DNA from: a virus
Lineage: Duplodnaviria > Heunggongvirae > Uroviricota > Caudoviricetes
Strand: one strand, 5' to 3'
IMG/VR virus record: IMGVR_UViG_2698536335_000001
Location: 1-26,512 of that record
Length of the DNA: 26,512 nucleotides
Shown: positions 1-23,632 of the stretch, one piece after another
Layout: every line of letters begins with the position of its first letter
Position numbering within the stretch: position 1 is the first letter of the stretch
Made by a program: the position numbers and the translations under genes
Notes under the pieces: model-generated
The model's input: the letters and a program-made list of their open reading frames with translations, nothing else
What the model was told of the DNA's origin: nothing
The model's database searches: none

Positions 1-52
1 AGCGGAGCAGGAAGGACATCTGATGGAAATGGAAGCCACGCAAGCACCTTAA
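1..52 (+). CDS. 3-prime end of an unidentified ORF that begins upstream of the window (last 16 codons, ...AEQEGHLMEMEATQAP)
   Basis: Frame open from the window edge to TAA at 50-52; ordinary GC content, unlike the AT-rich block that follows; too short to identify. Confidence 0.2.
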   Translation, partial: AEQEGHLMEMEATQAP

Positions 53-1460: not shown

Positions 1461-3725
1461 TCAGATCCTCTGAGTACCAGCAAGAATGACATCAAAAGCA
1501 GCGTAGCTTAACGTTGCCGGGTTTATGACTGCCCCTGATGCATCCTTAACTTTTATAATCACTGAAGTACCCCCATCCAAGACGGCCATGTATGAGTGTA
1601 TTGTGTCAACTGTAGGGCTCGCTATTACGTGGGTTTTAGTATACCAGTTCTTCTTTATTGGTATCCTGATGCAAGGGACTGCTGTATCAATAACTGGTGT
1701 TCCAAACACACTACTTCCATATGATGTAGATAACACGCCTGCCGTGAAAGTGAAACTGCACAGATCCATTCCAACAGGATTTACTTGTGAAGAGTTGCTT
1801 CCATAAGCGCTTCCTGCACCGACAGATTTAAAGTTGGTTACAGCTTCAGGGTTTCTAAGTGTTAGAATGTGAGGAACGCTTGTAGTATCCTCTTCTCTTA
1901 GCATTGCTATAGCTGGCACAGCCGAATCATTCATTAATGCCATACCCTGCGCTTCTTCTCCATATACAACGCTCCAAAAATCAACTAATTCCCCAGTGTA
2001 TTTGAACACATATATACCGTTATCGGAAAGGAAGTGGATAAATCCACCGTGCGCAACCATACCTTGAGGATTTCCATCAAATGAAGCGACAGGATACTCA
2101 AAGGAACTAATTAGTTGCTTGGAATTAATATCAATAATTGAGAAAAATTCATTTGGTGAACCAACTTTCCCAGTTGCAAGAACAAGCAAATCATGCTCAT
2201 TATCGATGCTGATGGTTGCTCCCATGCCGTACTGAGTTAAATCCCATGTTTCTGTAATTGATTTTCCATCAGTAGCAAGGATGTAAACTTCAGCATCAAA
2301 TTCTGAACCACCAGAGCTTACATATACTCTACCATCTAATTTACGCCATGCAGCGGAACTTGCATGTTTTAAAGGCAGTGTAACCTGACCATATGAGTTA
2401 TCAACGCTACCGTCTCTTTCATATCTAAACACTTGTCCGTTAACACCACCAATATCATATCCAACTATGAATTTTCCAATGGAGAAATCATACGCTAATC
2501 CTTGTGGTCTTTTTTGAGTACCAGTTGTTGGGACGGAAGTGATAGTAAATTCATAAAATCTTCTAAAAACATCGTTATCACCAAACGCCCCCCCTCTTCC
2601 TGGTGCAAGAATGCTATTTGCTCTTGGGTTGCTGTAATTTCCAGCCATTATAACTTTAGCACCCGAAACAGAAGAAATACCGCTAGTTCCGTCTGGTACA
2701 TATATGACACCCGAGGCAAGCATTGTTGGACCAGAAAGCGTTAATGGAAGTGAATATTTTTTTGATGCTGACAGCGCAGATTCTATAGCGTGAGTATCAT
2801 CATCTATACCATTTCTTTTTGCTCCGAAAAACTCAGGAGCTACATCATTGCACTCTCTCTTCCATCTATTACCACCAGATGTAACTATTGTTACGCCGTC
2901 ATCATCAATAGTTGTTGAATCAGTATTGTCGTAATAAAAGTAACCACCTCCAGTACCAGATCCTAATGTATGCTCTAAAACAAATATTCTTTGCTGTGTA
3001 TTTGTTGGTTCTATATTGCGTAAATTAGAAATGGAAGCACAATTGCCAATAAGTTTTAAGCCATCACTTGCTGCTAGCTGAATCATTACATCGGATGCAG
3101 ATCCAGACTGTGGAAGGACCATAATAGGATTACCATTGTCATCCATCGCTACCACTTTGTTTTTACGATTCTCAGCATCAGGCAAACTTGGTATTGGCTC
3201 AGGCGTTCTAAGAGTACGACCTAGATTTGTATTAGCAAGTTTATCGACATAATTTTTAGTCGCTGCATCCTGAGGGCGCGAAGGATCACGCAGGTTTCTG
3301 ATGTAGTTGTTAATAGCGTCATAATAATTCGCCACAAAAGATGGCTTACGAAGAGCAAGTGAAAACCAACTTCTTACCTGCTGGATCAGCATCGTTAGCT
3401 TATCAAACGCGTCCTCGTGCACCTCAGCAAAAAACTTACCCTGGTTTCTAAGATCTGTTTCCTGAGTAACCGGTAGTTCTCGCAATATGGAAATCTGATA
3501 ACCATTAGCCAGTGCCTTCGACAGAATTACATTGCCACCGTTATACCCTCCCGCACCAGTGACTGTGTAATCAGTATCAAGATCCAGCACAGTGATATTC
3601 TCGTCAAGGTCAATCACCTGCACTACTAAATCAGATTTATTGAAAACCCTAAAGGTATAAGGGAATGATGTCGTAACGCCGTTACCGGTGTATTCGTTGT
3701 GGTTAACTTCGGTTGAGACCGTCAT
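1461..3725 (-). CDS. tailspike / tail fibre protein, 754 aa
   Basis: N-terminal ~150 aa resemble the T7 gp17-type tail-attachment domain (by recall); long Gly/Ser/Thr/Asn-rich C-terminal part typical of beta-helical receptor-binding domains; GGAGA RBS; last gene of the virion operon. Confidence 0.8.
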   Translation of the reverse strand: MTVSTEVNHNEYTGNGVTTSFPYTFRVFNKSDLVVQVIDLDENITVLDLDTDYTVTGAGGYNGGNVILSKALANGYQISILRELPVTQETDLRNQGKFFAEVHEDAFDKLTMLIQQVRSWFSLALRKPSFVANYYDAINNYIRNLRDPSRPQDAATKNYVDKLANTNLGRTLRTPEPIPSLPDAENRKNKVVAMDDNGNPIMVLPQSGSASDVMIQLAASDGLKLIGNCASISNLRNIEPTNTQQRIFVLEHTLGSGTGGGYFYYDNTDSTTIDDDGVTIVTSGGNRWKRECNDVAPEFFGAKRNGIDDDTHAIESALSASKKYSLPLTLSGPTMLASGVIYVPDGTSGISSVSGAKVIMAGNYSNPRANSILAPGRGGAFGDNDVFRRFYEFTITSVPTTGTQKRPQGLAYDFSIGKFIVGYDIGGVNGQVFRYERDGSVDNSYGQVTLPLKHASSAAWRKLDGRVYVSSGGSEFDAEVYILATDGKSITETWDLTQYGMGATISIDNEHDLLVLATGKVGSPNEFFSIIDINSKQLISSFEYPVASFDGNPQGMVAHGGFIHFLSDNGIYVFKYTGELVDFWSVVYGEEAQGMALMNDSAVPAIAMLREEDTTSVPHILTLRNPEAVTNFKSVGAGSAYGSNSSQVNPVGMDLCSFTFTAGVLSTSYGSSVFGTPVIDTAVPCIRIPIKKNWYTKTHVIASPTVDTIHSYMAVLDGGTSVIIKVKDASGAVINPATLSYAAFDVILAGTQRI

Positions 3726-3778: not shown

Positions 3779-3845
3779 ATTACCTGAAAAACCATATATG
3801 GATAGGTAGACCATGAATACAAACAGATATTACCTTTCAGGTAAT
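3779..3845. promoter_or_regulatory. pair of inverted 11-mers ATTACCTGAAA (3779-3789) and TTTCAGGTAAT (3835-3845); the second is part of the 17-bp palindrome ATTACCTTTCAGGTAAT (3829-3845)
   Basis: Read directly in the intergenic region upstream of the tailspike gene; the same 17-mer recurs at 20444-20460. Confidence 0.35.
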
Positions 3846-3881: not shown

Positions 3882-3901
3882 TACTGTATAAATATACAGT
3901 T
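3882..3901 (+). promoter_or_regulatory. LexA (SOS) box TACTGTATAAATATACAGTT
   Basis: CTGT (3884-3887), 8-nt AT-rich spacer, ACAG (3896-3899); 18 of 20 positions match the E. coli consensus TACTGTATATATATACAGTA; 20 bp upstream of the ATG at 3921. Confidence 0.7.
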
Positions 3902-3920: not shown

Positions 3921-4178
3921 ATGCAGCAGTATCACTATCCACTGGAAGACGGATTTACCGAAAGGATTCACACGCCGGGAGGCGTCAGGTCACTGGTGGA
4001 GGGATCGCACTTGATGAAATTACTCCGGGATCTCGATAAGGATGGATTTAATGTCGATGGCCCACTTGCCGAACTGACTGCACTGATTAACTACGTCACC
4101 AGCTCACAGATGTCTATGCAGGATCTGCAAACACATCTCGACTATTGTGCCAAACAATTACGAAAACAAATCACATAA
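3921..4178 (+). CDS. SOS-regulated hypothetical protein, 85 aa, acidic (MQQYHYPLEDGFTERIHTPGG...)
   Basis: ATG at 3921 with GGAGA RBS (3909-3913); the track start at 3903 is a TTG extension; LexA box immediately upstream; convergent with the virion operon. Confidence 0.6.
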   Translation: MQQYHYPLEDGFTERIHTPGGVRSLVEGSHLMKLLRDLDKDGFNVDGPLAELTALINYVTSSQMSMQDLQTHLDYCAKQLRKQIT

Positions 4179-11715: not shown

Positions 11716-12179
11716 TATTTTCTCTCCATGTGAAATCTGTGGAAATTAAGACCAAGAGCACCATAAGGCGCGGCTTCTTCAAGCCTGAATCCAAGCCAGT
11801 GCAGCCATGCTTTGGCAACATGGTTTCGCTCGTCGACGTAGTTTTCCAGGCGCGGATAAACTGCCAGCATCTGCTGCAATACAGGGCGGCAGTGGCGAAG
11901 AAATGTCTTCTGATATTTTTCAATACGGCTGGTTCCTACCAGCCAGGGTGTACCATTGCCACCGATCATTGACGCCGGAGATACACCAAACATGGTTACC
12001 AGTTCTCCGTTCGCGAACCCTGACCAAGCCATAGTAGCAGTGCGAAGACCAACACGCAGCGCATCTTCGGTAGTCATCAGCGATACCGCATACAGTTCGT
12101 CAATATCAGCCTGACGAACATCCGGCAAAATCATCTGAAGATGCTCTTCGGTAGCGGGAATAATTTGAACGTCGATCAT
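11715..12179 (-). CDS. hypothetical virion-associated protein (T7 gp13-position), 154 aa
   Basis: ATG overlaps the upstream TGA (TGATG), indicating coupled translation within the operon. Confidence 0.7.
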   Translation of the reverse strand: MIDVQIIPATEEHLQMILPDVRQADIDELYAVSLMTTEDALRVGLRTATMAWSGFANGELVTMFGVSPASMIGGNGTPWLVGTSRIEKYQKTFLRHCRPVLQQMLAVYPRLENYVDERNHVAKAWLHWLGFRLEEAAPYGALGLNFHRFHMERK

Positions 12180-13495
12180 CAGAATCCCCCAACAGTAAGG
12201 CGAGGAATAACGGCAAGAACAGACAGCGGCAACGGGTCAAGCTGACGGATTTTTACACGTCCGTTTTTGCCCCAGTTACTGTCCAGTTTCACTTCTACTT
12301 TTCCGGTAGCATCATCAACAGGATCATCGTAGAACTCGAATTCACGCTGTGGATATTCGTACCATTTACCGCCAGGCGTAGTCGCCCAGATGCCGCGGCT
12401 GGCATTAACAACCAGAGTAACGGAGGGGATCACCTGTTTTTTGTCCAGCAGCGTTTCCTGTCCGTTAATGTTGATATCCAGTGTTTCGAATTCAGCAGTT
12501 ATTGGCAGGCCGATGTGCACTACAGCCCCCGGAGATTCCAGTGTGACGGCACCTCCGGAAACAACTTTCTGTGGCTCAACATTCGCATCAGAAAGAATGT
12601 TTACGGTCTGTCCTTCAAGATGAGACAGGCCTCCAAATGTCCGGCGCGCCATCTGCCAGTTCGTGGTGGCCGTATTCCTGAGGGATGGCGGGACGTTCCT
12701 GTTGGCACGAACCACTACAGCGGTATTGCTGGTTACAGAAATAATGTCGCAACGTAATTCTTTTGACACTTCATCGCCAGTATCAGGATCAGTTCCGGCA
12801 TAAGGGAACTGTAGTTGCGCGCCGACATCACTACTGGTGAAGTACGCACCACCAGAAACACTGATTGTATATTCCGCGCGATAATCCCATTCACCAGAAC
12901 CACCAGTGATGATCATCGTTCTGTCAGACGTATTTCTTCCATCATAGCTAAGGCCAGAATCAACAAAGAAAGCATCTTCATCGCTGGTAAATAAACGGCT
13001 GGACAGCCGCTCGATGTATCTCACTGTTTGCCCGTTAACGGTTCGGTTAACGACGAAATACACCGCATCTTCATTGCCTTCGCTGATACTGCATGTGCTT
13101 TCATATTTTCCGGTACTGGATTGTGGTGCCCATGCAAAAACCTGCTGATCACGCAAATAGGTCATCACCAGTAATTTACCGTCATCACGAATGCAGAAGG
13201 CGCTGGAGTAAGGGACAATAGAGAAGCACCAGTCAACAATGCTGTGCTTCTGAAAAAGATGATTGGCAAGGATGGTCAGGTCGTTCCCCTGATAGCCGTC
13301 AACATCGAATGAGTAGGCCAGATCACGGACAACACTGCCTTTCTCCTGGACGAACAGAGCAATATTCGCCACGGCAATTGGTGGGACATTGCTCGAGCCA
13401 TTTGATCCCTGAGAGCTGAATGCAAATGATGATGGGGTTAATACTTTGTTCTGGTCGCCGGTGATGACGTACTCACCTCCAGAAGTCAGCGCCAC
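12179..13495 (-). CDS. tail tubular protein B-like (nozzle), C-terminal portion; GTG start or frameshifted continuation of 13486-14649
   Basis: No ATG for the first ~110 codons, no clear RBS, begins 10 nt before the stop of the upstream ORF in another frame; position as T7 gp12. Confidence 0.65.
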   Translation of the reverse strand: MALTSGGEYVITGDQNKVLTPSSFAFSSQGSNGSSNVPPIAVANIALFVQEKGSVVRDLAYSFDVDGYQGNDLTILANHLFQKHSIVDWCFSIVPYSSAFCIRDDGKLLVMTYLRDQQVFAWAPQSSTGKYESTCSISEGNEDAVYFVVNRTVNGQTVRYIERLSSRLFTSDEDAFFVDSGLSYDGRNTSDRTMIITGGSGEWDYRAEYTISVSGGAYFTSSDVGAQLQFPYAGTDPDTGDEVSKELRCDIISVTSNTAVVVRANRNVPPSLRNTATTNWQMARRTFGGLSHLEGQTVNILSDANVEPQKVVSGGAVTLESPGAVVHIGLPITAEFETLDININGQETLLDKKQVIPSVTLVVNASRGIWATTPGGKWYEYPQREFEFYDDPVDDATGKVEVKLDSNWGKNGRVKIRQLDPLPLSVLAVIPRLTVGGF

Positions 13496-14649
13496 CAGCG
13501 AACCAACATCATCAGGTGGCGGATCTCATTAACCTGACGCCCGGCATAGGTGTAGATAATTCTGTCGTCATCCTGCGTAGGATTGCTTTTGCCAAAATCC
13601 TTATAATCCCCAGTACGGCTGGCCCAGATAGTCTGAGGGAACGCAGTCGATGCGGCGAAGTAAAGACGTTGTTGATAATAAACAACAGTGCCAGGATAAC
13701 CGTTAATACTGTTCCAGGCATATTTAGCCCATTTATAGCTGGCATTATCCTCGCCAACTACCTGCGAAGGGATATAGGAAATCACCTCGGCAGTTGCAGT
13801 AGTTCCATTTGCAGCAGAGATACGGGCAATGCCAAAACCACTGTGCAGATATTCCCACTCAATGCCAGTATCATCATCACCGGATCCGCCCCAGCCATCC
13901 CATGATGTGCCTTCTGTATGCGAAGGGCGCAAAGTACCTGTTTTGCCTGCTGTAACGGCGCGATAGTAGTTACTGTCTGCACGGCGAATATCGCCAATCG
14001 ACGTACTCTTACTGGTTTCCCATACCGGCACTGAATCCACTGCAGGCTGTTCCAGATAGAACAATTTGCCTACCTGCTCCGCGCCAAAAATAGAGGCGCT
14101 TGCCGTTAACGTAATTGTCCCGGTGCTGGCGCTGGCATAAACCGTCACTGACTCGTCAATATTGATATCTTCAAATGGCCCGTTCTTCGTTACCACATCA
14201 ACCAGTTGCCAGTTGTCATGCGCATAGCGGCGCAACTCTTTCGGCGGGTATGCCGGGTGAACCAGCGTAAGCACGTCGGCGCTTTGCGTGAATTTAATTC
14301 GGAACAGATCGGCTTCAGTATATGGCGTGGCAATTTCATAAATAACATTGCTGCTGTTCAGCACCAACGCACCATCTTTGATAACGCGCATGTACTGGTG
14401 TCCGAACTCCAGAGCATAAGTCTGAACCGTCGAGAACTGGAACGGGATCAGACGGCATTTCCGATTTGGGTATTTGGCGGCACCGACAAAACGCGTACCA
14501 GGTCGATTCTCAACGCCGCCATACTGCCGCACGATAAAGTTATCGCACTTGCGCAAAGCCACCTGGTACTTCGCCATGTCGATACGACCGTACAACGACG
14601 GTCCAATCTCACCACCGGCAAAGCTGGGCTGGATCCAACTGATAGCCAT
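13486..14649 (-). CDS. tail tubular protein B-like (nozzle), N-terminal portion
   Basis: ATG overlaps the stop of the gp11-like gene (ATGA); combined length with 12179-13495 is about 825 aa, close to T7 gp12. Confidence 0.65.
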   Translation of the reverse strand: MAISWIQPSFAGGEIGPSLYGRIDMAKYQVALRKCDNFIVRQYGGVENRPGTRFVGAAKYPNRKCRLIPFQFSTVQTYALEFGHQYMRVIKDGALVLNSSNVIYEIATPYTEADLFRIKFTQSADVLTLVHPAYPPKELRRYAHDNWQLVDVVTKNGPFEDINIDESVTVYASASTGTITLTASASIFGAEQVGKLFYLEQPAVDSVPVWETSKSTSIGDIRRADSNYYRAVTAGKTGTLRPSHTEGTSWDGWGGSGDDDTGIEWEYLHSGFGIARISAANGTTATAEVISYIPSQVVGEDNASYKWAKYAWNSINGYPGTVVYYQQRLYFAASTAFPQTIWASRTGDYKDFGKSNPTQDDDRIIYTYAGRQVNEIRHLMMLVRWWR

Positions 14650-15627: not shown

Positions 15628-15963
15628 TTACACGCCCAGTTCTTTACGCTTATCTGCGATCTTCTCGCGGAGCGTTTCGGCTTTGGCGTTATGGTGTGGC
15701 TTCTCGTTAAAGAGCAATTCGTACTCTTCACGGAGCTTATCCAGTTCACCATCATCTGACACATCGTTGATGATTTTGGTGCTGGTTGCTGCCATTGACA
15801 CCTTTCCTGCAACTTTTGCTTTTGCCTGTCTGGCTGCATCGTTAACAGGTTCCAGTGCGCTACCAGGCTCACCTTCGTATTCGATTTCTACCCCCTCCGG
15901 CCACAGTGTGTTATGGATATGAGAGAGGCGCAGAACGCGGTATCTTGGTTTCTCACCTGACAT
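15628..15963 (-). CDS. hypothetical structural protein, ~111 aa
   Basis: ATG at 15963 with AAGGTGA RBS; the track start at 15972 is a GTG extension. Confidence 0.6.
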   Translation of the reverse strand: MSGEKPRYRVLRLSHIHNTLWPEGVEIEYEGEPGSALEPVNDAARQAKAKVAGKVSMAATSTKIINDVSDDGELDKLREEYELLFNEKPHHNAKAETLREKIADKRKELGV

Positions 15964-18161: not shown

Positions 18162-18458
18162 TCACTCCTGTTCACTGGCCTCTTTGGCCATCTTCAAATA
18201 CTGTTCAGGGCAATGCGCCATAACGCGCTGAAACAGTTCCAGCGCCAGATTGCGTTGCCCCTCATTAAATGCCATTGCCATAGCGTCCATCGGTGAGATA
18301 GCGGAAAACACACGGCCTTTCTCCAGCACCGACCAGACAACGCGACGCCCCTGTTCACTGCTCATGACAAAGCGAATGTCATCAATTTCACGCTGTGCCA
18401 TGTCACGTTGCTTACGGGCGTTTTCTTCTTTCAGTTGATCGTCTTCGTAATCTGTCAT
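18162..18458 (-). CDS. hypothetical head-morphogenesis protein, 98 aa
   Basis: Start overlaps the portal stop by 4 nt; charged helical protein. Confidence 0.55.
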   Translation of the reverse strand: MTDYEDDQLKEENARKQRDMAQREIDDIRFVMSSEQGRRVVWSVLEKGRVFSAISPMDAMAMAFNEGQRNLALELFQRVMAHCPEQYLKMAKEASEQE

Positions 18459-20134
18459 TGTGATTGCCCACCCTGACCACTAACTGCATTCGCCATAGCT
18501 GACAACACACTCGGATCCGAAGTTTTAGCTTCGCTTAGCGTCTTGGCCCCCTGTGCCGCCGCCATCCCCATCGCCATCATTTGTTGCTGCTGTTGTTGCT
18601 GTGCCCGTTGCTGGCGAGCCTGCTCAACCTGTTCCTGCGGAACAATGACGGTTGGAGACACTCCGGACATATCAGCGAATGCATCGATCGCCTGATCAAC
18701 GTTGAGTTTGTCGAGAGCTTCTGGTTTCGCTTGCGCAAGTTGACCAATGAAGTTAACCGTGGACGCCAGACTGGACAGGCCGATAGACTTCTGCGCCTGA
18801 GCCATGACGGAAATGTATTCGACCTTCAGGGGCATGCCTTCCATCGCGTCAGGCGGTGGCGGCAGCATGTTTTTACGCACCATCATCGAGAAAGCGCGGT
18901 CAATGAGAGGATTAAGACATTCGTCGTTCAGACGCTCCAGAACCGGCCCCAACATCAGAAGTTTTTCTTCTTTCATTTCGATCACCGCTTCAACAGGCAT
19001 CGAGCGGGTATTGATGTTCTGCAACATCATGAACAGATCGACAAAGTAGGCGCTGTTAATGATTTGACGAGTGTCCTGAATGTCTGCCACCAAATCTGCT
19101 GTACTGGGGTTAACCAGATAAGCAGGCCTGAAGCCATCCTGACCAGTAATCTGATCGATATACGTGATGTCGCCAGGAAGAAGGGAGGCGCGCTGATTCT
19201 TGAGGGAAGTCGGAGCAACCATCGGCGGATTGGTGGCTTTATCAATCAACTGCGACTTGCGCTTCTGGAGAAGCTGCAATGCCTTAACAGGTCCAAGCGC
19301 CAGCATACCCGGGCATGATGATCCATAAACATCTTCGCCGTTAACTTCCCAGCGCGGAGCCATAATTGGAAACTCATCGAATCCGGACTCACGCAACAAC
19401 TTGTCGTTATCGCCACCAACCTCGTAATAAACCGATTTGAATGGCTTGTTCTTGCTATCCAGCTTCGATGTGTCGCGGTCAATATTCGGGTAAACCGAAT
19501 GCATCACTTCAATCCACTTCTCGTAGGTGCCGCTTTCCCACATGCTTTTTACGGATTCGCTGACGTTATTTAGCCCGAACTCCTGAACAAGCTGACGAAC
19601 AGTCATAGAGAACTTGCGAAAACAGGTGTCCACACTGCCACGAGGTGAGTTAGCCAGGTAGTAACTACCAATCGGGAATGGCATTGTGCGAATGATGTCC
19701 TCGTCATCCTCCAGTACCGCCATTGCACCGGTGCTGTATGTGCCGAGGCTTCCGTATAACTGCGGAAGAGACTGGTAGAGATTCGACTTATTGAACATAT
19801 CGTTCATGCGGTTCTGCACCGCCTCAAGCCACAACTTAACAGGGCCATAATCCATCATTTCAGGATCTGGCGTAGCCAGGCGAAACCACGGACGGGCGGG
19901 GCTTGTGATGCCTGACATCATGCCGCTGGCGAGAGTGCGCGCCGCCATAGTCCCGGTCGAATCAATAATGCGTGTATTGCGTCGATCGTTACGGTTGACC
20001 TCAGAAGTCAGAAAGCGGGAACCACGCGGGTTGATGTAATCACTCAACTCGCGCCAGTGCGGCTCGAACGACTGACGCTCGCTTTCAAGTTGTGCGAACT
20101 GTTTGTTCAATCGCTCTTTAGTTGTTTCCGCCAT
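18455..20134 (-). CDS. portal (head-to-tail connector) protein, 559 aa
   Basis: Size and position between terminase and scaffold; GGAG RBS. Confidence 0.8.
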   Translation of the reverse strand: MAETTKERLNKQFAQLESERQSFEPHWRELSDYINPRGSRFLTSEVNRNDRRNTRIIDSTGTMAARTLASGMMSGITSPARPWFRLATPDPEMMDYGPVKLWLEAVQNRMNDMFNKSNLYQSLPQLYGSLGTYSTGAMAVLEDDEDIIRTMPFPIGSYYLANSPRGSVDTCFRKFSMTVRQLVQEFGLNNVSESVKSMWESGTYEKWIEVMHSVYPNIDRDTSKLDSKNKPFKSVYYEVGGDNDKLLRESGFDEFPIMAPRWEVNGEDVYGSSCPGMLALGPVKALQLLQKRKSQLIDKATNPPMVAPTSLKNQRASLLPGDITYIDQITGQDGFRPAYLVNPSTADLVADIQDTRQIINSAYFVDLFMMLQNINTRSMPVEAVIEMKEEKLLMLGPVLERLNDECLNPLIDRAFSMMVRKNMLPPPPDAMEGMPLKVEYISVMAQAQKSIGLSSLASTVNFIGQLAQAKPEALDKLNVDQAIDAFADMSGVSPTVIVPQEQVEQARQQRAQQQQQQQMMAMGMAAAQGAKTLSEAKTSDPSVLSAMANAVSGQGGQSQ

Positions 20135-20148
20135 TTCAATGACTCCGG

Positions 20149-20355
20149 TTACTGACCAAGCAGCGTTTTACCGCTGGTATTAGCGGTTGATGTGTCGCCC
20201 TGAGAACCGGTAAGCAGCGTAGAACTACGACCAGCAGCAGCGCGACGGCGACGTGTTTCTTCGTCGCGGGCATCAACAACGGCGGCATCCTGCTCCTGTG
20301 GTGCTGCCTGAACTTCTGGTGTTGCAGGCACTGATGGTGAGCTACCCATGCACAT
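20149..20355 (-). CDS. small Ser/Thr/Ala-rich hypothetical protein, 68 aa
   Basis: Shares an almost identical 16-nt translation-initiation sequence with the portal gene; chosen over the overlapping alternative frame 20136-20375. Confidence 0.4.
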   Translation of the reverse strand: MCMGSSPSVPATPEVQAAPQEQDAAVVDARDEETRRRRAAAGRSSTLLTGSQGDTSTANTSGKTLLGQ

Positions 20356-20423
20356 ATCAATGACTCCGTACGCAATTAAATTATTACCAATTTAACCACA
20401 TATGATTTATTTATCGTAGATAG

Positions 20424-20461
20424 TTGACATTTAACGCACAAATTATTACCTTTCAGGTAAC
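20424..20461 (+). promoter_or_regulatory. candidate promoter (TTGACA at 20424-20429, 17-bp spacer, TACCTT) overlapped by the 17-bp motif at 20444-20460
   Basis: Perfect -35 hexamer read directly; the -10 is weak; the 17-mer TATTACCTTTCAGGTAA is identical to the copy at 3828-3844. Confidence 0.3.
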
Positions 20462-20782
20462 CAAAGAGTTCATTCCGGTTACTAACCTGACTGGCTTGTC
20501 GTTAAATTGAACAGGTGGAGTGAGCTTTTATTTTGAGCAGTACGGCGTATGGCACATGCGCCGATAGCGGTCTGGATACGTTTAAGGGGCACCCTCCCTT
20601 GCTCGGGCAAACGAACCAGGTAGCCGGAATGTGCAAGTCGAGCGGTTTTATTCCGCGCACGGGGATTCACCATCCCGGCGATTCGGTGTGACGCCTCGGA
20701 AGAGACGAGGGTACAACGATGAGAGCATTTATGGAGCCGCGACAAAGTGTGGCGCCTTAACAGGCTAAGTGCTCTCAGCGTT

Positions 20783-20859
20783 GTGGCATTAGCTCAGTTG
20801 GACAGAGCAACCGCCTTCTAAGCGGTTGGTCGCAGGTTCGAATCCTGCATGCCACGCCA
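20783..20859 (+). tRNA. tRNA-Arg, anticodon TCT (reads AGA), 77 nt with encoded CCA
   Basis: Hand-folded cloverleaf: acceptor GTGGCAT/ATGCCAC, D arm GCTC/GAGC, anticodon stem ACCGC/GCGGT with loop CTTCTAA, T arm GCAGG-TTCGAAT-CCTGC; similar to but distinct from E. coli argU as I recall it. Confidence 0.9.
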
Positions 20860-20902
20860 GAATCACGCCTAAGGACCGTGATGCCAGAAGTTCCAGGGGC
20901 TT

Positions 20903-20945
20903 GGCGGTGATGGTTTCCCTTGAAGGACTATCACCGCCCTTTTTA
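20903..20945 (+). terminator. hairpin plus T-run downstream of the tRNA
   Basis: 9-bp stem ggcggtgat (20903-20911) / atcaccgcc (20930-20938) followed by CTTTTT. Confidence 0.5.
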
Positions 20946-21022
20946 CAGCAGGACGCCATTGCGATGACTTCATGCTGTAAACCAGTACAGCCACGGAAGG
21001 CATAACTCATTGCTTCCAGTTC

Positions 21023-21046
21023 GCCCGGTTCGCCGGGCATTTTTTT
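21023..21046 (+). terminator. GC-rich hairpin with seven T residues, abutting the RBS of the gene at 21063
   Basis: gcccgg-ttcg-ccgggc (21023-21038), A, then TTTTTTT (21040-21046); AAGGTGA RBS follows at 21047-21053. Confidence 0.6.
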
Positions 21047-21062
21047 AAGGTGAGATTAGACT

Positions 21063-21434
21063 ATGAGTGACAAAGACATTGAATCTGAAATTCAGGCTAA
21101 AGGTTTAGCCGCGCCGCGCGTTACGCCAGACCATATCGAGAGCATTATTGCTCAGGAGGCATATTTCACAGCAGAAGATGGTTCCTTTGGCGTAGCCATA
21201 AAAGCGAAACATACTGGCGGAGAGGTAAACTACCAGCCGCACGAATCACTTTCTCTGCTGACGTTCTGCGTCCTGGTGCTGCGCAACGGCTTCACCGTCA
21301 CCGGAGAGAGCGCCTGTGCAAGCCCGGAAAACTTTGATGCAGAAATTGGTCGGAAGATTGCCCGACAGAATGCTGTAAACAAAATCTGGATGCTTGAAGG
21401 TTACTTGCTGAAGCAGAAGTTAAGCGAGCAATAA
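21063..21434 (+). CDS. moron-encoded hypothetical protein, 123 aa; possibly N4 gp49 / Sf6 gene 66 family
   Basis: Strong RBS; segment LRNGFTVTGESACASPENFDAEIGRKIARQNA resembles the conserved core of that family as I recall it; opposite strand to the virion operon. Confidence 0.6.
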   Translation: MSDKDIESEIQAKGLAAPRVTPDHIESIIAQEAYFTAEDGSFGVAIKAKHTGGEVNYQPHESLSLLTFCVLVLRNGFTVTGESACASPENFDAEIGRKIARQNAVNKIWMLEGYLLKQKLSEQ

Positions 21435-21454
21435 CACCGTGACATATCACAAAC

Positions 21455-21481
21455 AGCCAGCCTATGAGCTGGCTTTGTTTT
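21455..21481 (+). terminator. hairpin plus T-rich tail after the moron gene
   Basis: agccagc-ctatga-gctggct (21455-21474) followed by TTGTTTT. Confidence 0.5.
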
Positions 21482-21524
21482 ATCCTCATCAGAGGATATC
21501 AACAACATTATCCCCTCAAGCGGA

Positions 21525-23000
21525 TTAAGCATAGGGATCGTAATCTGTGATGGCCTTGCCTTGCTGGTTCTGCTGCCCGGGAATTCGCAGACGCTTAGAC
21601 ACAGGGAACGCAAACGTCAGCAGTAGCGCATCGCCTTTACCCGGAGAACGCCCAAGCCGCTCTTTGATATCTTCCTTCGGTTCGATAACGATTTTACCGT
21701 CCACTCGAACTTTGTACTCTGCCGCCGACAGGTCGTCCGCTGTTTCCTGGTCATCCAGCATGCCGCCCAGCCTCAGCCATGTCTTACATGAGTTGAACAT
21801 CTCCCCACGCTTGTTAAGCATCTGCGGGTCAGTGGACGCACCGCCGAACGGAACAAGTTGCCATGTACGTCCCCAGCCATCACCGATTGACTTCAAACCG
21901 GTTCCGTAACCGAAGTCGATGAACACCGCGTCAGCCTGGTACTGGTCTTCAAAGTCAGCGATACGCTTCGCCATAATCAGATCGTCGGTGGTCTTGTTGC
22001 CGGTCCACAGCACCTTACTGTGCAGCCCCTGCCGCAGGTATATCACCGCGTCATCAACACCGGAGTATGCAGGGTCAACGCCGATTATCACCGGAGCATG
22101 TGCCACCTGCGCAGCAGTTACCACCCGTTTCATTGCCTCGTCAGTAAGACCGGTAGGGATAAACTGCAATTCAGATGCATCAGGGAATATGCCGCGCACA
22201 CGGATTTTAACGAAGTCGCTGTCTTCCCCGTAGTCATCAACCCATTTCTGCAACTGCTGTTTGTTAGTGCCTTCCACCGTCCGGCTGTCAATCTGCGCAG
22301 TTTTCCAGCGGTGTTTATACTTGCGGAAACATTCACGGAATCGCCCGGTATTACGCGTAGGGTTTCCGAACGCCACCCAAATAATCTCAGTGTCTTCGTC
22401 CGTAAGCGCACCCTCGGCAACTTCCCACACCAGATCCGCAATGTTCGACGCTTCATCAAACACCACGATGATGCGTTTGCGCTCGTTGTGTAGTCCGGCG
22501 AATGCCTCAGTGTTGTGCTCAGACCAGGGGATTGCGTCAGCCCGCCACCGCTTGTCGTGCCCAGGATCATTGCTGTACATCGCGGTAGCGGTACAGGTAA
22601 ACCAGTCTTTCGTGATAGCAAGGTTCGACCACTTGATAATTTCCGGCCAAGTCTTCGTTCGTAGCTGGTTGTCGGTGTTGGCGGTCACCACGACCTTACA
22701 ATCCTCGCAAGTGGACATGCCCCAGTTGATCAGCATTGAGATGAATGCGGATTTACCAATACCGTGACCAGAAGCACGTGCCAGCATAAGCGGCTGATAT
22801 CGCGTCTCTGGATTCTGCAGGTGATCACGTATCTCTCGGAACGCATCGGCCTGCCACTGACGTGGACCGGTGGCATGTGCCAGTTCAGTACCCTCTTCCC
22901 CCCACGGGAACGCATAGAGGGCATAGCCAAGCGGATCGTGAGTGAACCCTGCAATATCCTCGATTAACTGCTCTTCAGGAGATAACACTGTATCTGTCAC
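21525..23000 (-). CDS. terminase large subunit, 491 aa
   Basis: Walker A-like ASGHGIGKS and Walker B-like IIVVFDEAS in the N-terminal ATPase region, acidic nuclease-like C-terminal half; start overlaps the small-subunit stop. Confidence 0.85.
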   Translation of the reverse strand: MTDTVLSPEEQLIEDIAGFTHDPLGYALYAFPWGEEGTELAHATGPRQWQADAFREIRDHLQNPETRYQPLMLARASGHGIGKSAFISMLINWGMSTCEDCKVVVTANTDNQLRTKTWPEIIKWSNLAITKDWFTCTATAMYSNDPGHDKRWRADAIPWSEHNTEAFAGLHNERKRIIVVFDEASNIADLVWEVAEGALTDEDTEIIWVAFGNPTRNTGRFRECFRKYKHRWKTAQIDSRTVEGTNKQQLQKWVDDYGEDSDFVKIRVRGIFPDASELQFIPTGLTDEAMKRVVTAAQVAHAPVIIGVDPAYSGVDDAVIYLRQGLHSKVLWTGNKTTDDLIMAKRIADFEDQYQADAVFIDFGYGTGLKSIGDGWGRTWQLVPFGGASTDPQMLNKRGEMFNSCKTWLRLGGMLDDQETADDLSAAEYKVRVDGKIVIEPKEDIKERLGRSPGKGDALLLTFAFPVSKRLRIPGQQNQQGKAITDYDPYA

Positions 23001-23593
23001 TGATTACCATCCTGACGTTCTTTGAGTCGCTTCCTGGCTGCTGCTATGCGATCAGCAATTGTCACATTCACATTAACATCCAGGCGTTCTTTGAATGCGT
23101 TGACGTCGACGTGCTTACCAATCAGTTCGAGGTTCTTCACCTTGTCAGGCCATTTAATTTTTTTGAGGATTGTCTCTATCGAATCCTCGTTCATGTTCAT
23201 GATGGTCGATGACAGATCAAAGCCGCTAAGCGTAGTGCGCCAGATTTTCGGCCACTCGCGGATTGGCTTAAGGCTCCCATCGTCGTTGAGGATGTCGATC
23301 ACGTCCATCTGGTCGATCTCCACCAGGCGCATGAGAACGTAATCAGCACTGACGCGCATTCGTTTGTTGCGCTCCTCCATCAACTCGGCAATCCGTTTTT
23401 GAATGCGTTCATCGCGCATCATGACACTGGCTTTAACTGCCGCTGTATTTGGGGAGAATCCTGCATTAATCGCTGCCTGAGTCTGGTTTTCAGGCGTTTT
23501 GATGTATGACTGGCAATAAGCCTCCTGCATTGCTGTTAGTGGCTTAAATTGCGTTGATTTGCGTTTATAGGTTTTAGGTTCAGCAGGCATCAT
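22997..23593 (-). CDS. terminase small subunit, ~198 aa
   Basis: Immediately upstream of and overlapping the large subunit; helix-rich basic protein; ATG at 23593 (track start 23671 is a TTG extension running through a terminator and tandem repeat). Confidence 0.65.
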   Translation of the reverse strand: MMPAEPKTYKRKSTQFKPLTAMQEAYCQSYIKTPENQTQAAINAGFSPNTAAVKASVMMRDERIQKRIAELMEERNKRMRVSADYVLMRLVEIDQMDVIDILNDDGSLKPIREWPKIWRTTLSGFDLSSTIMNMNEDSIETILKKIKWPDKVKNLELIGKHVDVNAFKERLDVNVNVTIADRIAAARKRLKERQDGNQ

Positions 23594-23596
23594 AAC

Positions 23597-23632
23597 CACC
23601 GTGGTAATAGTTACCGTTGTGGTAATAGTACC
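23597..23632. repeat. tandem direct repeat, two copies of ~18 bp, core GTGGTAATAGT at 23601-23611 and 23619-23629
   Basis: Read directly: accgtggtaatagttaccgttgtggtaatagtacc, between the terminator and the terminase small-subunit start. Confidence 0.5.

Follow-up and report, generated by a model that had tools for sequence, protein, structure and literature searches.

A phage-borne tRNA-Arg(UCU) gene and an adjoining conserved leader RNA in a Uetakevirus prophage

We analysed a 26,512-nt stretch of DNA from a virus of the class Caudoviricetes (IMG/VR record IMGVR_UViG_2698536335_000001, positions 1 to 26,512; hereafter the window), which is part of a phiV10/epsilon15-type (Uetakevirus) prophage, and we focus here on its gene for a transfer RNA (tRNA), tRNA-Arg with the anticodon UCU, and on the structured leader RNA that precedes this gene. 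Among other coliphages, the Shiga toxin (Stx) phage 933W carries ileZ-argN-argO, and T4 carries a tRNA cluster that includes a tRNA-Arg with the anticodon UCU. These tRNAs likewise decode codons that are rare in E. coli, for which the classical explanation is codon compensation. They are arranged in late or dedicated clusters, whereas the gene in the window is single, runs against the late genes, follows a promoter-like site that is apparently repressor-controlled, and is fused to a leader. The host gene argU (E. coli tRNA-Arg4) has the same anticodon, anticodon loop, D-arm, T-arm, A20 and G73 as the phage tRNA, but it stands alone beside an integrase gene, while the phage tRNA is embedded in a long structured precursor. 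The tRNA-Arg of other Uetakeviruses (typing phages 9 and 10, SPC32H, SPN9TCW, phiv142-3 and ZX5) is the same gene, with no real difference.

Several phage RNAs resemble the leader in part. Like the leader, the put RNAs of HK022 are structured RNAs at the start of an early transcript under repressor control, with terminators and promoterless genes downstream; they measure about 70 nt, against about 180-240 nt for the leader, and blastn detected no homology between the two beyond chance-level matches. GOLLD and ROOL are large non-coding prophage RNAs of unknown function that recur beside tRNA genes and are represented in Rfam, whereas the leader has no Rfam match, is much smaller and is restricted to Enterobacterales. 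The C4 antisense RNA of phages P1 and P7 (RF01695) is released by RNase P through a tRNA-like acceptor stem with a CCA mimic, and the non-tRNA modules described below similarly end in ACCA or AAC after a closing stem. In contrast to C4, the element itself contains no C4 or isrK match. The sole matches of this kind were isrK and C4 antisense RNA genes lying side by side in a lambdoid IMG/VR contig (L050, 6466-6654, +), about 2 kb from the leader core and on the other strand.

The new element at this locus is a conserved, covariation-supported and unannotated leader RNA carried by one in three E. coli genomes. If functional, it would represent a new class of phage RNA and would provide a concrete account of how single tRNAs are gained and expressed by temperate phages. 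As for the tRNA, we propose, with a probability of roughly one half, that it is functional and is made as the 3' part of a leader transcript under repressor control, from which it would be released by RNase P and 3' trimming to give a modest and conditional boost to AGA decoding.

An intact tRNA-Arg(UCU) gene between the terminase and portal genes

ARAGORN found a single tRNA in the window, a tRNA-Arg (anticodon tct) at exactly 20783-20859 (+), and Rfam RF00005 scored it at 73.3 bits against a gathering score of 29 (E = 1.6e-14). The gene occupies a 1.4-kb gap between the genes for the large terminase (21525-23000, -) and the portal protein (18455-20134, -), on the strand opposite to both, and is followed by a hairpin with a T-run and by a second terminator-like hairpin. 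A gp3-like ORF and the Gp49_66-family ORF lie in the same gap. The initial annotation, which had described an intact tRNA-Arg(UCU) with its own terminator at this position and in this orientation, is borne out on each of these points.

The phage tRNA is identical to K-12 argU at 64 of 77 positions. Ten of the 13 differences make up five stem pairs that are altered on both sides, namely acceptor pairs 2-71, 4-69 and 6-67 and anticodon-stem pairs 29-41 and 30-40, and the other three affect two bases of the variable loop and one of the D-loop. No change is seen in the anticodon loop CUUCUAA, in the D and T arms or at A20, C35, U36 and G73. The identity elements of E. coli arginyl-tRNA synthetase (ArgRS) are A20, C35, U36 and A/G73, and position-by-position comparison with argU showed that all of them are present in the phage tRNA. 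Homologues in the same slot of Salmonella phage SPC32H and Klebsiella phage phi13.3 are identical at 73 and 72 of the 77 positions, respectively; their stem changes are exclusively wobble-compatible, and position 73 is A. These compensatory and wobble-compatible changes form the pattern expected for a tRNA under selection. The best-supported reading of the gene is that of a functional, phage-borne accessory gene of phiV10/SPN1S-type Uetakevirus phages, whose product would be expressed and charged with arginine.

The stretch from 20300 to 21500 is about 99% identical to phiV10 and the O157 typing phages 9 and 10, in which the tRNA itself is 100% identical. Among 5,426 complete E. coli genomes, about 505 records (approximately 9%) hold a copy of the tRNA at 95% identity or more, and in the others the closest match is the host argU at 86%. 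The tRNA is already annotated in KP869107, KP869108, SPC32H, SPN9TCW and phiv142-3 and, by PGAP, in RefSeq genomes, and the authors of the ZX5 paper list 'one tRNA' but do not discuss it (PMC9782041). In the RefSeq record of phiV10 it is unannotated, and an antisense open reading frame (ORF), PhiV10p04, which corresponds to ORF 20789-21040 (-) of the window, is given instead. The tRNA-Arg gene in itself is thus already known and a routine phage tRNA. Epsilon15, the type member of the genus, lacks it, about 330 bp being absent there relative to the window; since epsilon15 is viable, the tRNA is dispensable in at least one combination of phage and host.

E. coli strain 12089 contains a 99.9%-identical prophage between yfgI and guaA, with its integrase adjoining guaA, and the tRNA is internal to this prophage, about 15 kb from the integrase end and about 23 kb from the other end. 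The ZX5 paper places attP close to the integrase, where guaA has its 3' end (PMC9782041). The same tRNA is found in the same slot of the free phages phiV10, O157 typing phages 9 and 10, SPC32H and a Klebsiella phage. Because it is internal to the prophage and is carried by free phage genomes, the tRNA is cargo, as had been claimed at the outset. The opposite reading, an integration-site remnant or a tRNA attachment site, draws on the facts that many integrases target tRNA genes, argU among them, and that the integrase gene of DLP12 adjoins argU. Here, the attachment sites are distant from the tRNA, the prophage sits at guaA, and the tRNA is complete, present in virion genomes and unlike argU in its acceptor stem; the prophage boundaries and the argU comparison exclude a remnant, which we consider scarcely credible.

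A conserved leader RNA and its junction with the tRNA

Between the promoter-like site and the tRNA lies a structured leader RNA of about 240 nt (approximately 20526-20783), which is kept together with the tRNA in Uetakeviruses. An alignment of 19 sequences gave a consensus of 45 pairs in seven helices. Paired cells amounted to 97.7%, against 90.0 +/- 0.6 in shuffles, and pairs changed on both sides numbered 13, against 8.1 in shuffles, with 0 of 500 shuffles reaching the observed value in either case; slid registers of the alignment were only 30-44% paired. The long helix P5 directly adjoins the tRNA and uses tRNA nucleotide G1 in its last pair. It comprises 16 pairs, five with changes on both sides, and 97% of its cells are paired across the 19 sequences. 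Because of invariant G-U pairs, the RNA is assigned to the + strand, the same strand as the tRNA. In an alignment of 34 sequences the hairpins were confirmed, and the register of one 5' helix became TC[C/T]G with C[G/A]GG, with C-G in 22 sequences, U-A in 12 and none broken; since this register differs between the two alignments, the fold of the 5' domain is uncertain. A covariance model built from the 34-sequence alignment, R1, detected one copy each, at 147-169 bits, in the window, SPC32H, mEp460, cdtI, an Stx2c phage, Ayreon and P1, and a 20-bit remnant in epsilon15. The same search gave nothing in lambda or in the HK022 immunity region.

The predicted 421-nt precursor folds much better than shuffles (z = -4.3), and hairpins P1 and P4, helix P5, the anticodon and T arms and terminator T1 appear in both its minimum free energy and centroid folds. 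Downstream of the tRNA, the trailer hairpin shows a compensatory change from G-C to A-U in one family member (L035), and a variable position lies in its loop. A long-range outer stem, in which 20672-20692 of the leader would pair with 20862-20882 of the trailer, had been predicted from three sequences and a single-sequence fold. RNAduplex over 47 family members scored this stem no better than shuffles, and the variation in the tRNA-bearing subset fits the local trailer hairpin at least as well.

Rfam 15, run on the window, mEp460 and 12 other loci, placed no family on the leader at the gathering score or at E <= 10; the only match in the unit was the tRNA itself. We found no paper describing the leader RNA within a limited coverage of the literature, a search with the invariant 19-mer gave irrelevant matches, and none of the records and papers on Uetakevirus tRNA phages that were read mentions it. 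The prophage Pas small RNAs of a 2026 bioRxiv preprint were considered as a candidate for the same element; they adjoin structural genes and are not evidently identical.

The leader has matches of about 83% in unrelated lambdoid phages (mEp460, cdtI, Stx2c-converting phages, Ayreon and 2H10) and a partial match in P1. Its 19-mer, GGTAGCCGGAATGTGCAAG, occurs in at least 120 IMG/VR contigs and in 24 species-representative genomes, all of them Enterobacterales except two contigs of metagenome-assembled genomes binned to Bacillota. These two contigs (L147 and L159, binned as Oscillospiraceae and Bacillota) contain the exact enterobacterial 19-mer and are probably mis-binned enterobacterial phage contigs. 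By blastn, the leader was found in 1,840 of 5,426 complete E. coli genomes (34%), at 1,920 chromosomal and 554 plasmid places, and it is probably present in P1-type plasmids. RefSeq annotation at leader loci was 'none' in 39 of 40 sampled rows. Elsewhere, ORFs drawn over the tRNA or leader are called hypothetical proteins, as in phiV10 (PhiV10p04), mEp460 (gp37) and Ayreon (gp37). Overlapping ORFs of this kind lie at 20789-21040 (-) and 20482-20745 (-) of the window, at 1882-2250 of locus L012 and at 3000-3119 of locus L136. Because of the RNA covariation and their inconsistent strands, these ORFs are probably spurious, and the leader flags such 'hypothetical protein' annotations in several phage records.

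In lambdoid phages, homology to the Uetakevirus unit stops 4 nt into the tRNA (GTGG) and returns at a similar terminator, often with the trailer AATCACGCCTNAGGACCGTGAT. The junction, at which GTT is directly followed by GTGG, is shared by Uetakeviruses and lambdoid phages, and terminators similar to T1 come after the modules of the latter. Twenty-eight of 117 unique elements have a tRNA at the junction, always tRNA-Arg(UCU), and 89 have none. All 25 IMG/VR contigs with a tRNA at the junction are of the Uetakevirus type, another 11 Uetakevirus contigs carry a different module, and none of the 24 species-representative leader copies is joined to a tRNA. The non-tRNA occupants are multi-arm RNAs of 110-135 nt with the closing stem GTGG(TG)...(CA)CCAC followed by AAC or ACCA, and are tRNA-like in outline only; in some leader elements the slot is empty. 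In phage P1, the scaffold (1847-2215 of locus L013) starts at the extreme 3' end of trnI and reaches ban, with neither P5 nor a module.

This distribution can be read in another way, namely that function resides in the leader RNA, which would require something tRNA-shaped at its fixed junction, be it as an RNase P processing handle, as a 3'-end or stability element or as part of the RNA's own activity, with decoding by the tRNA incidental or secondary. Such a reading accommodates the same scaffold, junction and similar terminator in lambdoid phages whose slot holds a non-tRNA module or nothing, the majority of unique elements without a tRNA, the Uetakevirus contigs with another module, the start of the P1 scaffold at the trnI 3' end, and the presence of the scaffold in 34% of E. 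coli genomes against about 9% for the tRNA. On the other hand, the anticodon loop and the ArgRS identity positions, which a structural handle would not need, are kept in E. coli, Salmonella and Klebsiella phages, and a true tRNA at the junction is always Arg(UCU), which suggests selection on tRNA identity. This reading is the main rival to ours, and we regard it as rather unlikely. A broader form of it, which we put forward tentatively and believe to be possible without favouring it, holds that the tRNA-Arg is one of several interchangeable modules on an undescribed, early-made structured RNA, the leader being the functional unit and the tRNA having been captured by Uetakeviruses. The leader could then be a cis-acting antiterminator, an RNase P-dependent maturation platform, or an early RNA for anti-defence or host takeover. 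An antiterminator role like that of put would fit the position of the leader and the terminators downstream, but fails on the lack of homology and on the copy near PR: no second scaffold copy was present within about 3 kb in mEp460, cdtI or Ayreon, each locus having one copy. A role in processing or maturation would fit the fixed junction and the tRNA-like modules.

Probable repressor operators, terminators and the downstream slot

In an alignment of E. coli, Salmonella and Klebsiella phages and epsilon15, the TTGACA of the promoter-like site and a palindrome that includes its -10 are kept, whereas the spacer is variable; this conserved block immediately precedes the gp3-like ORF. A second site is built in the same way (TAGACC, 18 nt, TACCTT and the same palindrome, the latter at 3830-3844) and faces an Ant-like ORF. 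The palindrome, TTACCTTTCAGGTAA, is a probable repressor operator. Its motif TTACC-N5-GGTAA occurs four times in the window against 0.47 expected (3830-3844, 20446-20460, 23593-23607 and 23611-23625), upstream of the tailspike/ant, gp3/tRNA and small terminase (TerS) units. The prophage region of strain 12089 has 13 copies against 1.0 expected; pairs flank the repressor gene, and one or two copies precede the lysis, tailspike/ant, gp3/tRNA, TerS and DUF1064 units. The homologous palindrome is labelled as a repressor binding site in the RefSeq record of epsilon15, and the prophage repressor is 42% identical to Rep of SPC32H. Since the palindromes lie upstream of these units, the repressor appears to bind directly in front of late operons. 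With its promoter-like site overlapped by an operator, the tRNA unit would be off in the lysogen and on at induction.

The leader has a comparable position in other phages. In Ayreon, it begins shortly after an annotated promoter that adjoins cI and corresponds in position to lambda PL, and in P1 it lies in the ban operon, which the C1 repressor controls. From the operator overlap in Uetakeviruses, the position by cI in Ayreon and the C1 control of ban in P1, the leader appears to lie downstream of a prophage-repressor-controlled promoter in three unrelated phage types. These positions bear on the idea of lysogenic conversion, in which the tRNA would be expressed from the prophage and help the host to translate AGA-rich acquired genes, including the EpsG-family O-antigen gene of the window. 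As is typical of morons, the unit runs against the late operon and ends in terminators of its own, and AGA and AGG make up eight of the ten Arg codons of the EpsG gene. However, the sole plausible promoter is overlapped by the repressor operator, the lambdoid leader follows an early-left promoter that the repressor would keep off in the lysogen, and the leader of P1 lies within the C1-repressed ban operon. Lysogenic conversion is improbable as the role of the tRNA.

As a separate observation on P1, the leader segment CACCATCCTGG shows complementarity with CCAGGATGG(A)GTG, a stretch spanning the ribosome-binding site of ban, at -30 kcal/mol against -21.6 kcal/mol for shuffles. This complementarity hints at a possible translational control of ban.

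Downstream of the tRNA, T1 is kept in relatives, and T2 shows a compensatory change in SPC32H and epsilon15, where its stem reads GCCCAC/GTGGGC. Between the two lies a weak LexA-like box, CTGTAAACCAGTACAG, at 20975-20990, which lacks conservation in SPC32H and epsilon15 and probably arose by chance. The accessory ORF of the Phage_gp49_66 family (PF13876) must rely on read-through from the promoter of the tRNA unit, because only 16 nt separate the end of the T-run at 21046 from its ATG at 21063. The bidirectional hairpin beyond this ORF corresponds to a putative rho-independent terminator in the phiV10 record. The coordinates of the features are collected in Table 1.

Table 1. Features of the window discussed in the text.
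Feature	Position	Strand	Basis or remark
tRNA-Arg, anticodon UCU, 77 nt, CCA end encoded	20783-20859	+	ARAGORN, Rfam RF00005, comparison with argU
Leader RNA core (scaffold)	20526-20719	+	covariance model R1, 154 bits, E = 1e-45
Hairpin P1 of leader	20543-20563	+	
Invariant 19-mer GGTAGCCGGAATGTGCAAG of leader	20619-20637	+	
Hairpin P4 of leader, GAAGAG loop	20694-20710	+	
Long helix P5, 20714-20729 pairing with 20767-20783	20714-20783	+	apical loop variable in length
Promoter-like site: -35 TTGACA (20424-20429), 17-nt spacer, -10 TACCTT (20447-20452)	20424-20452	+	conservation
Palindrome TTACCTTTCAGGTAA, probable prophage-repressor operator	20446-20460	.	overlaps -10 and predicted start
Trailer hairpin, ATCACG, 9-nt loop, CGTGAT	20862-20882	+	read from sequence
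Intrinsic terminator T1, 14-bp stem then CTTTTT	20903-20946	+	scan; kept in relatives
Terminator-like hairpin T2, GCCCGG-TTCG-CCGGGC then ATTTTTTT	21023-21046	+	conserved
Phage_gp49_66-family accessory ORF (PF13876)	21063-21434	+	Pfam E = 2.4e-35
Terminator-like bidirectional hairpin between Gp49_66 ORF and end of large terminase gene	21455-21481	.	scan
gp3-like ORF, 68 aa, in the terminase-portal gap	20149-20355	-	
Tailspike gene, main potential tRNA client	1461-3725	-	18 AGA among 29 Arg codons, 41% GC

The slot 3' of the tRNA is variable. It holds the Gp49_66 ORF in the window, a gene resembling the Thoeris anti-defence gene Tad2 in Klebsiella phage ST512-KPC3phi13.3, another ORF in SPC32H and nothing in phiv142-3 (slot coordinates 21063-21434, +, in the window, 3197-3718 in locus L006 and 3253-3669 in locus L005). 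Comparison of these ORFs among relatives revealed no relatedness. The Tad2-like neighbour lends some weight to a counter-defence role, in which early tRNAs and tRNA-like modules would replace tRNAs hit by anticodon nucleases of the host or of competitors, or act as decoys for them. Colicin D cleaves tRNA-Arg, a counter-defence role for phage tRNAs has reportedly been proposed in published work, and the apparently direct repressor control of the unit would entail early synthesis. Nevertheless, the anticodon loop is identical to that of argU, with no sign of an escape mutation, epsilon15 does without the tRNA, and among the phage-defence nucleases of E. coli we are aware of none that targets tRNA-Arg(UCU) specifically. 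We consider such a role unlikely.

Codon supply and the proposed expression of the tRNA unit

According to the preferred reading, that of a functional tRNA released from a leader transcript, the unit runs from the promoter-like site with its operator through the leader of about 240 nt, the tRNA, the trailer hairpin and the two terminators to the variable accessory ORF. It would be silent in the lysogen and would be transcribed upon induction or infection, in the direction opposite to that of the late genes. RNase P would cut at the junction between P5 and tRNA G1, and the 3' end would be trimmed to the encoded CCA. The additional tRNA would then modestly raise the decoding of AGA, and weakly that of AGG. 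The main beneficiaries would be the AGA-rich tailspike gene of low GC content, together with genes for tail and ejection proteins, lysis and replication. In this scheme, the tRNA with its conservation and position, the structure of the leader, the distribution of the operator motif, the terminators and the codon counts are observed, while promoter activity, timing, processing and any gain in decoding are predicted.

The codon usage of the prophage is consistent with such a supply. Counted on PGAP gene coordinates, the whole prophage (11,678 codons) has 7.02 AGA and 3.43 AGG per 1000 codons, which together amount to 17.8% of its Arg codons, against 1.27 and 0.77 per 1000 and 3.6% of Arg codons in 94 flanking host genes (32,326 codons). 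This is an approximately five-fold enrichment (odds ratio (OR) 5.2, p = 3e-28), and a per-gene count of the kind that the initial annotation had called for therefore finds the phage richer than the host. Its individual counts were correct for 12179-13495, with three AGA and two AGG, although this ORF is only the C-terminal half of a split 823-codon tail gene rather than a gene of its own; for 15628-15963, to which one AGA had been ascribed, we count two. The tailspike gene is the main potential client and contains a tandem AGA-AGA at codons 388-389. AGA is also frequent in the tail and ejection proteins, in the Rz-like gene and in replication genes.

A number of observations weigh against the preferred reading. 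The first concern expression and processing: a sigma-70 scan of 20100-21600 reported no promoter, and the -10 is weak, matching at three of six positions. Because the -10 is weak and the generic scan silent, the promoter is a deduction from conservation and from overlap with the operator. In addition, a helix that reaches position -1 of a tRNA is not obviously a good substrate for RNase P. Others concern the distribution of the codons within the prophage. Early genes have 6.2 AGA and 4.3 AGG per 1000, compared with 6.9 and 2.4 in late genes. AGA is absent, and AGG occurs just three times, from the 2,144 codons of the genes whose products are required most abundantly, those for the head and for packaging (major capsid, protease, cement, portal, gp3, gp5, large terminase and TerS). 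The cognate codons are thus not concentrated in the late or highly expressed genes of the prophage, and the idea of a decoder serving late genes holds insofar as AGA and AGG are enriched over the host, but not in its restriction to late genes, since early genes are equally rich and head and terminase genes lack AGA. The most AGA-rich genes belong to low-GC modules (tailspike, 41% GC; EpsG, 32% GC), and the AGA excess is therefore partly compositional.

The remaining observations against it come from other phages. Lambda has no tRNA, yet its AGA and AGG frequencies are higher, at 9.67 and 4.94 per 1000. Epsilon15, without the tRNA, has 4.38 and 4.06 per 1000, against 5.57 and 4.07 in SPC32H, which has it (p = 0.20). 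The prophage exceeds epsilon15 with an OR of 1.6 (p = 0.007), and this difference is driven by the tailspike. Among Uetakevirus-type IMG/VR contigs, for which sampled flanks with ORF-based gene calls were compared, AGA amounts to 4.5 per 1000 in those with another module (n = 11) and to 3.2 in those with the tRNA (n = 25). Across lambda, epsilon15 and the Uetakevirus contigs, tRNA-bearing phages thus do not use the cognate codons more than tRNA-less ones. The codon match is real but generic and does not discriminate, so that the usual codon-compensation account, shown here to be non-discriminating, is weakly supported as an explanation for the tRNA. A benefit for the AGA-rich tailspike is plausible, and it would be conditional, because close relatives do without the tRNA.

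Further features of the window concern the state of the prophage and its other modules. The gp12-like tail gene (12179-14649, -), a single coding sequence of 823 codons in strain 12089, is split here into the overlapping ORFs 13486-14649 and 12179-13495, one A being missing near 13511 relative to strain 12089; this indicates either a defective prophage or a sequencing error. The EpsG-family O-antigen gene (327-1409, +; 32% GC) adjoins the tailspike gene as a serotype-conversion module. According to the annotation of strain 12089, a frameshifted IS1 ends inside the start of the window (1-39), between the EpsG/tailspike module and the lysis genes. Opposite the tailspike gene, a perfect LexA box, CTGTATAAATATACAG (3884-3899), lies upstream of an 85-aa ORF (3921-4178, +), which lies where SPC32H has its anti-repressor gene, ant. 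This arrangement suggests a possible SOS-controlled anti-repression, as in SPC32H.

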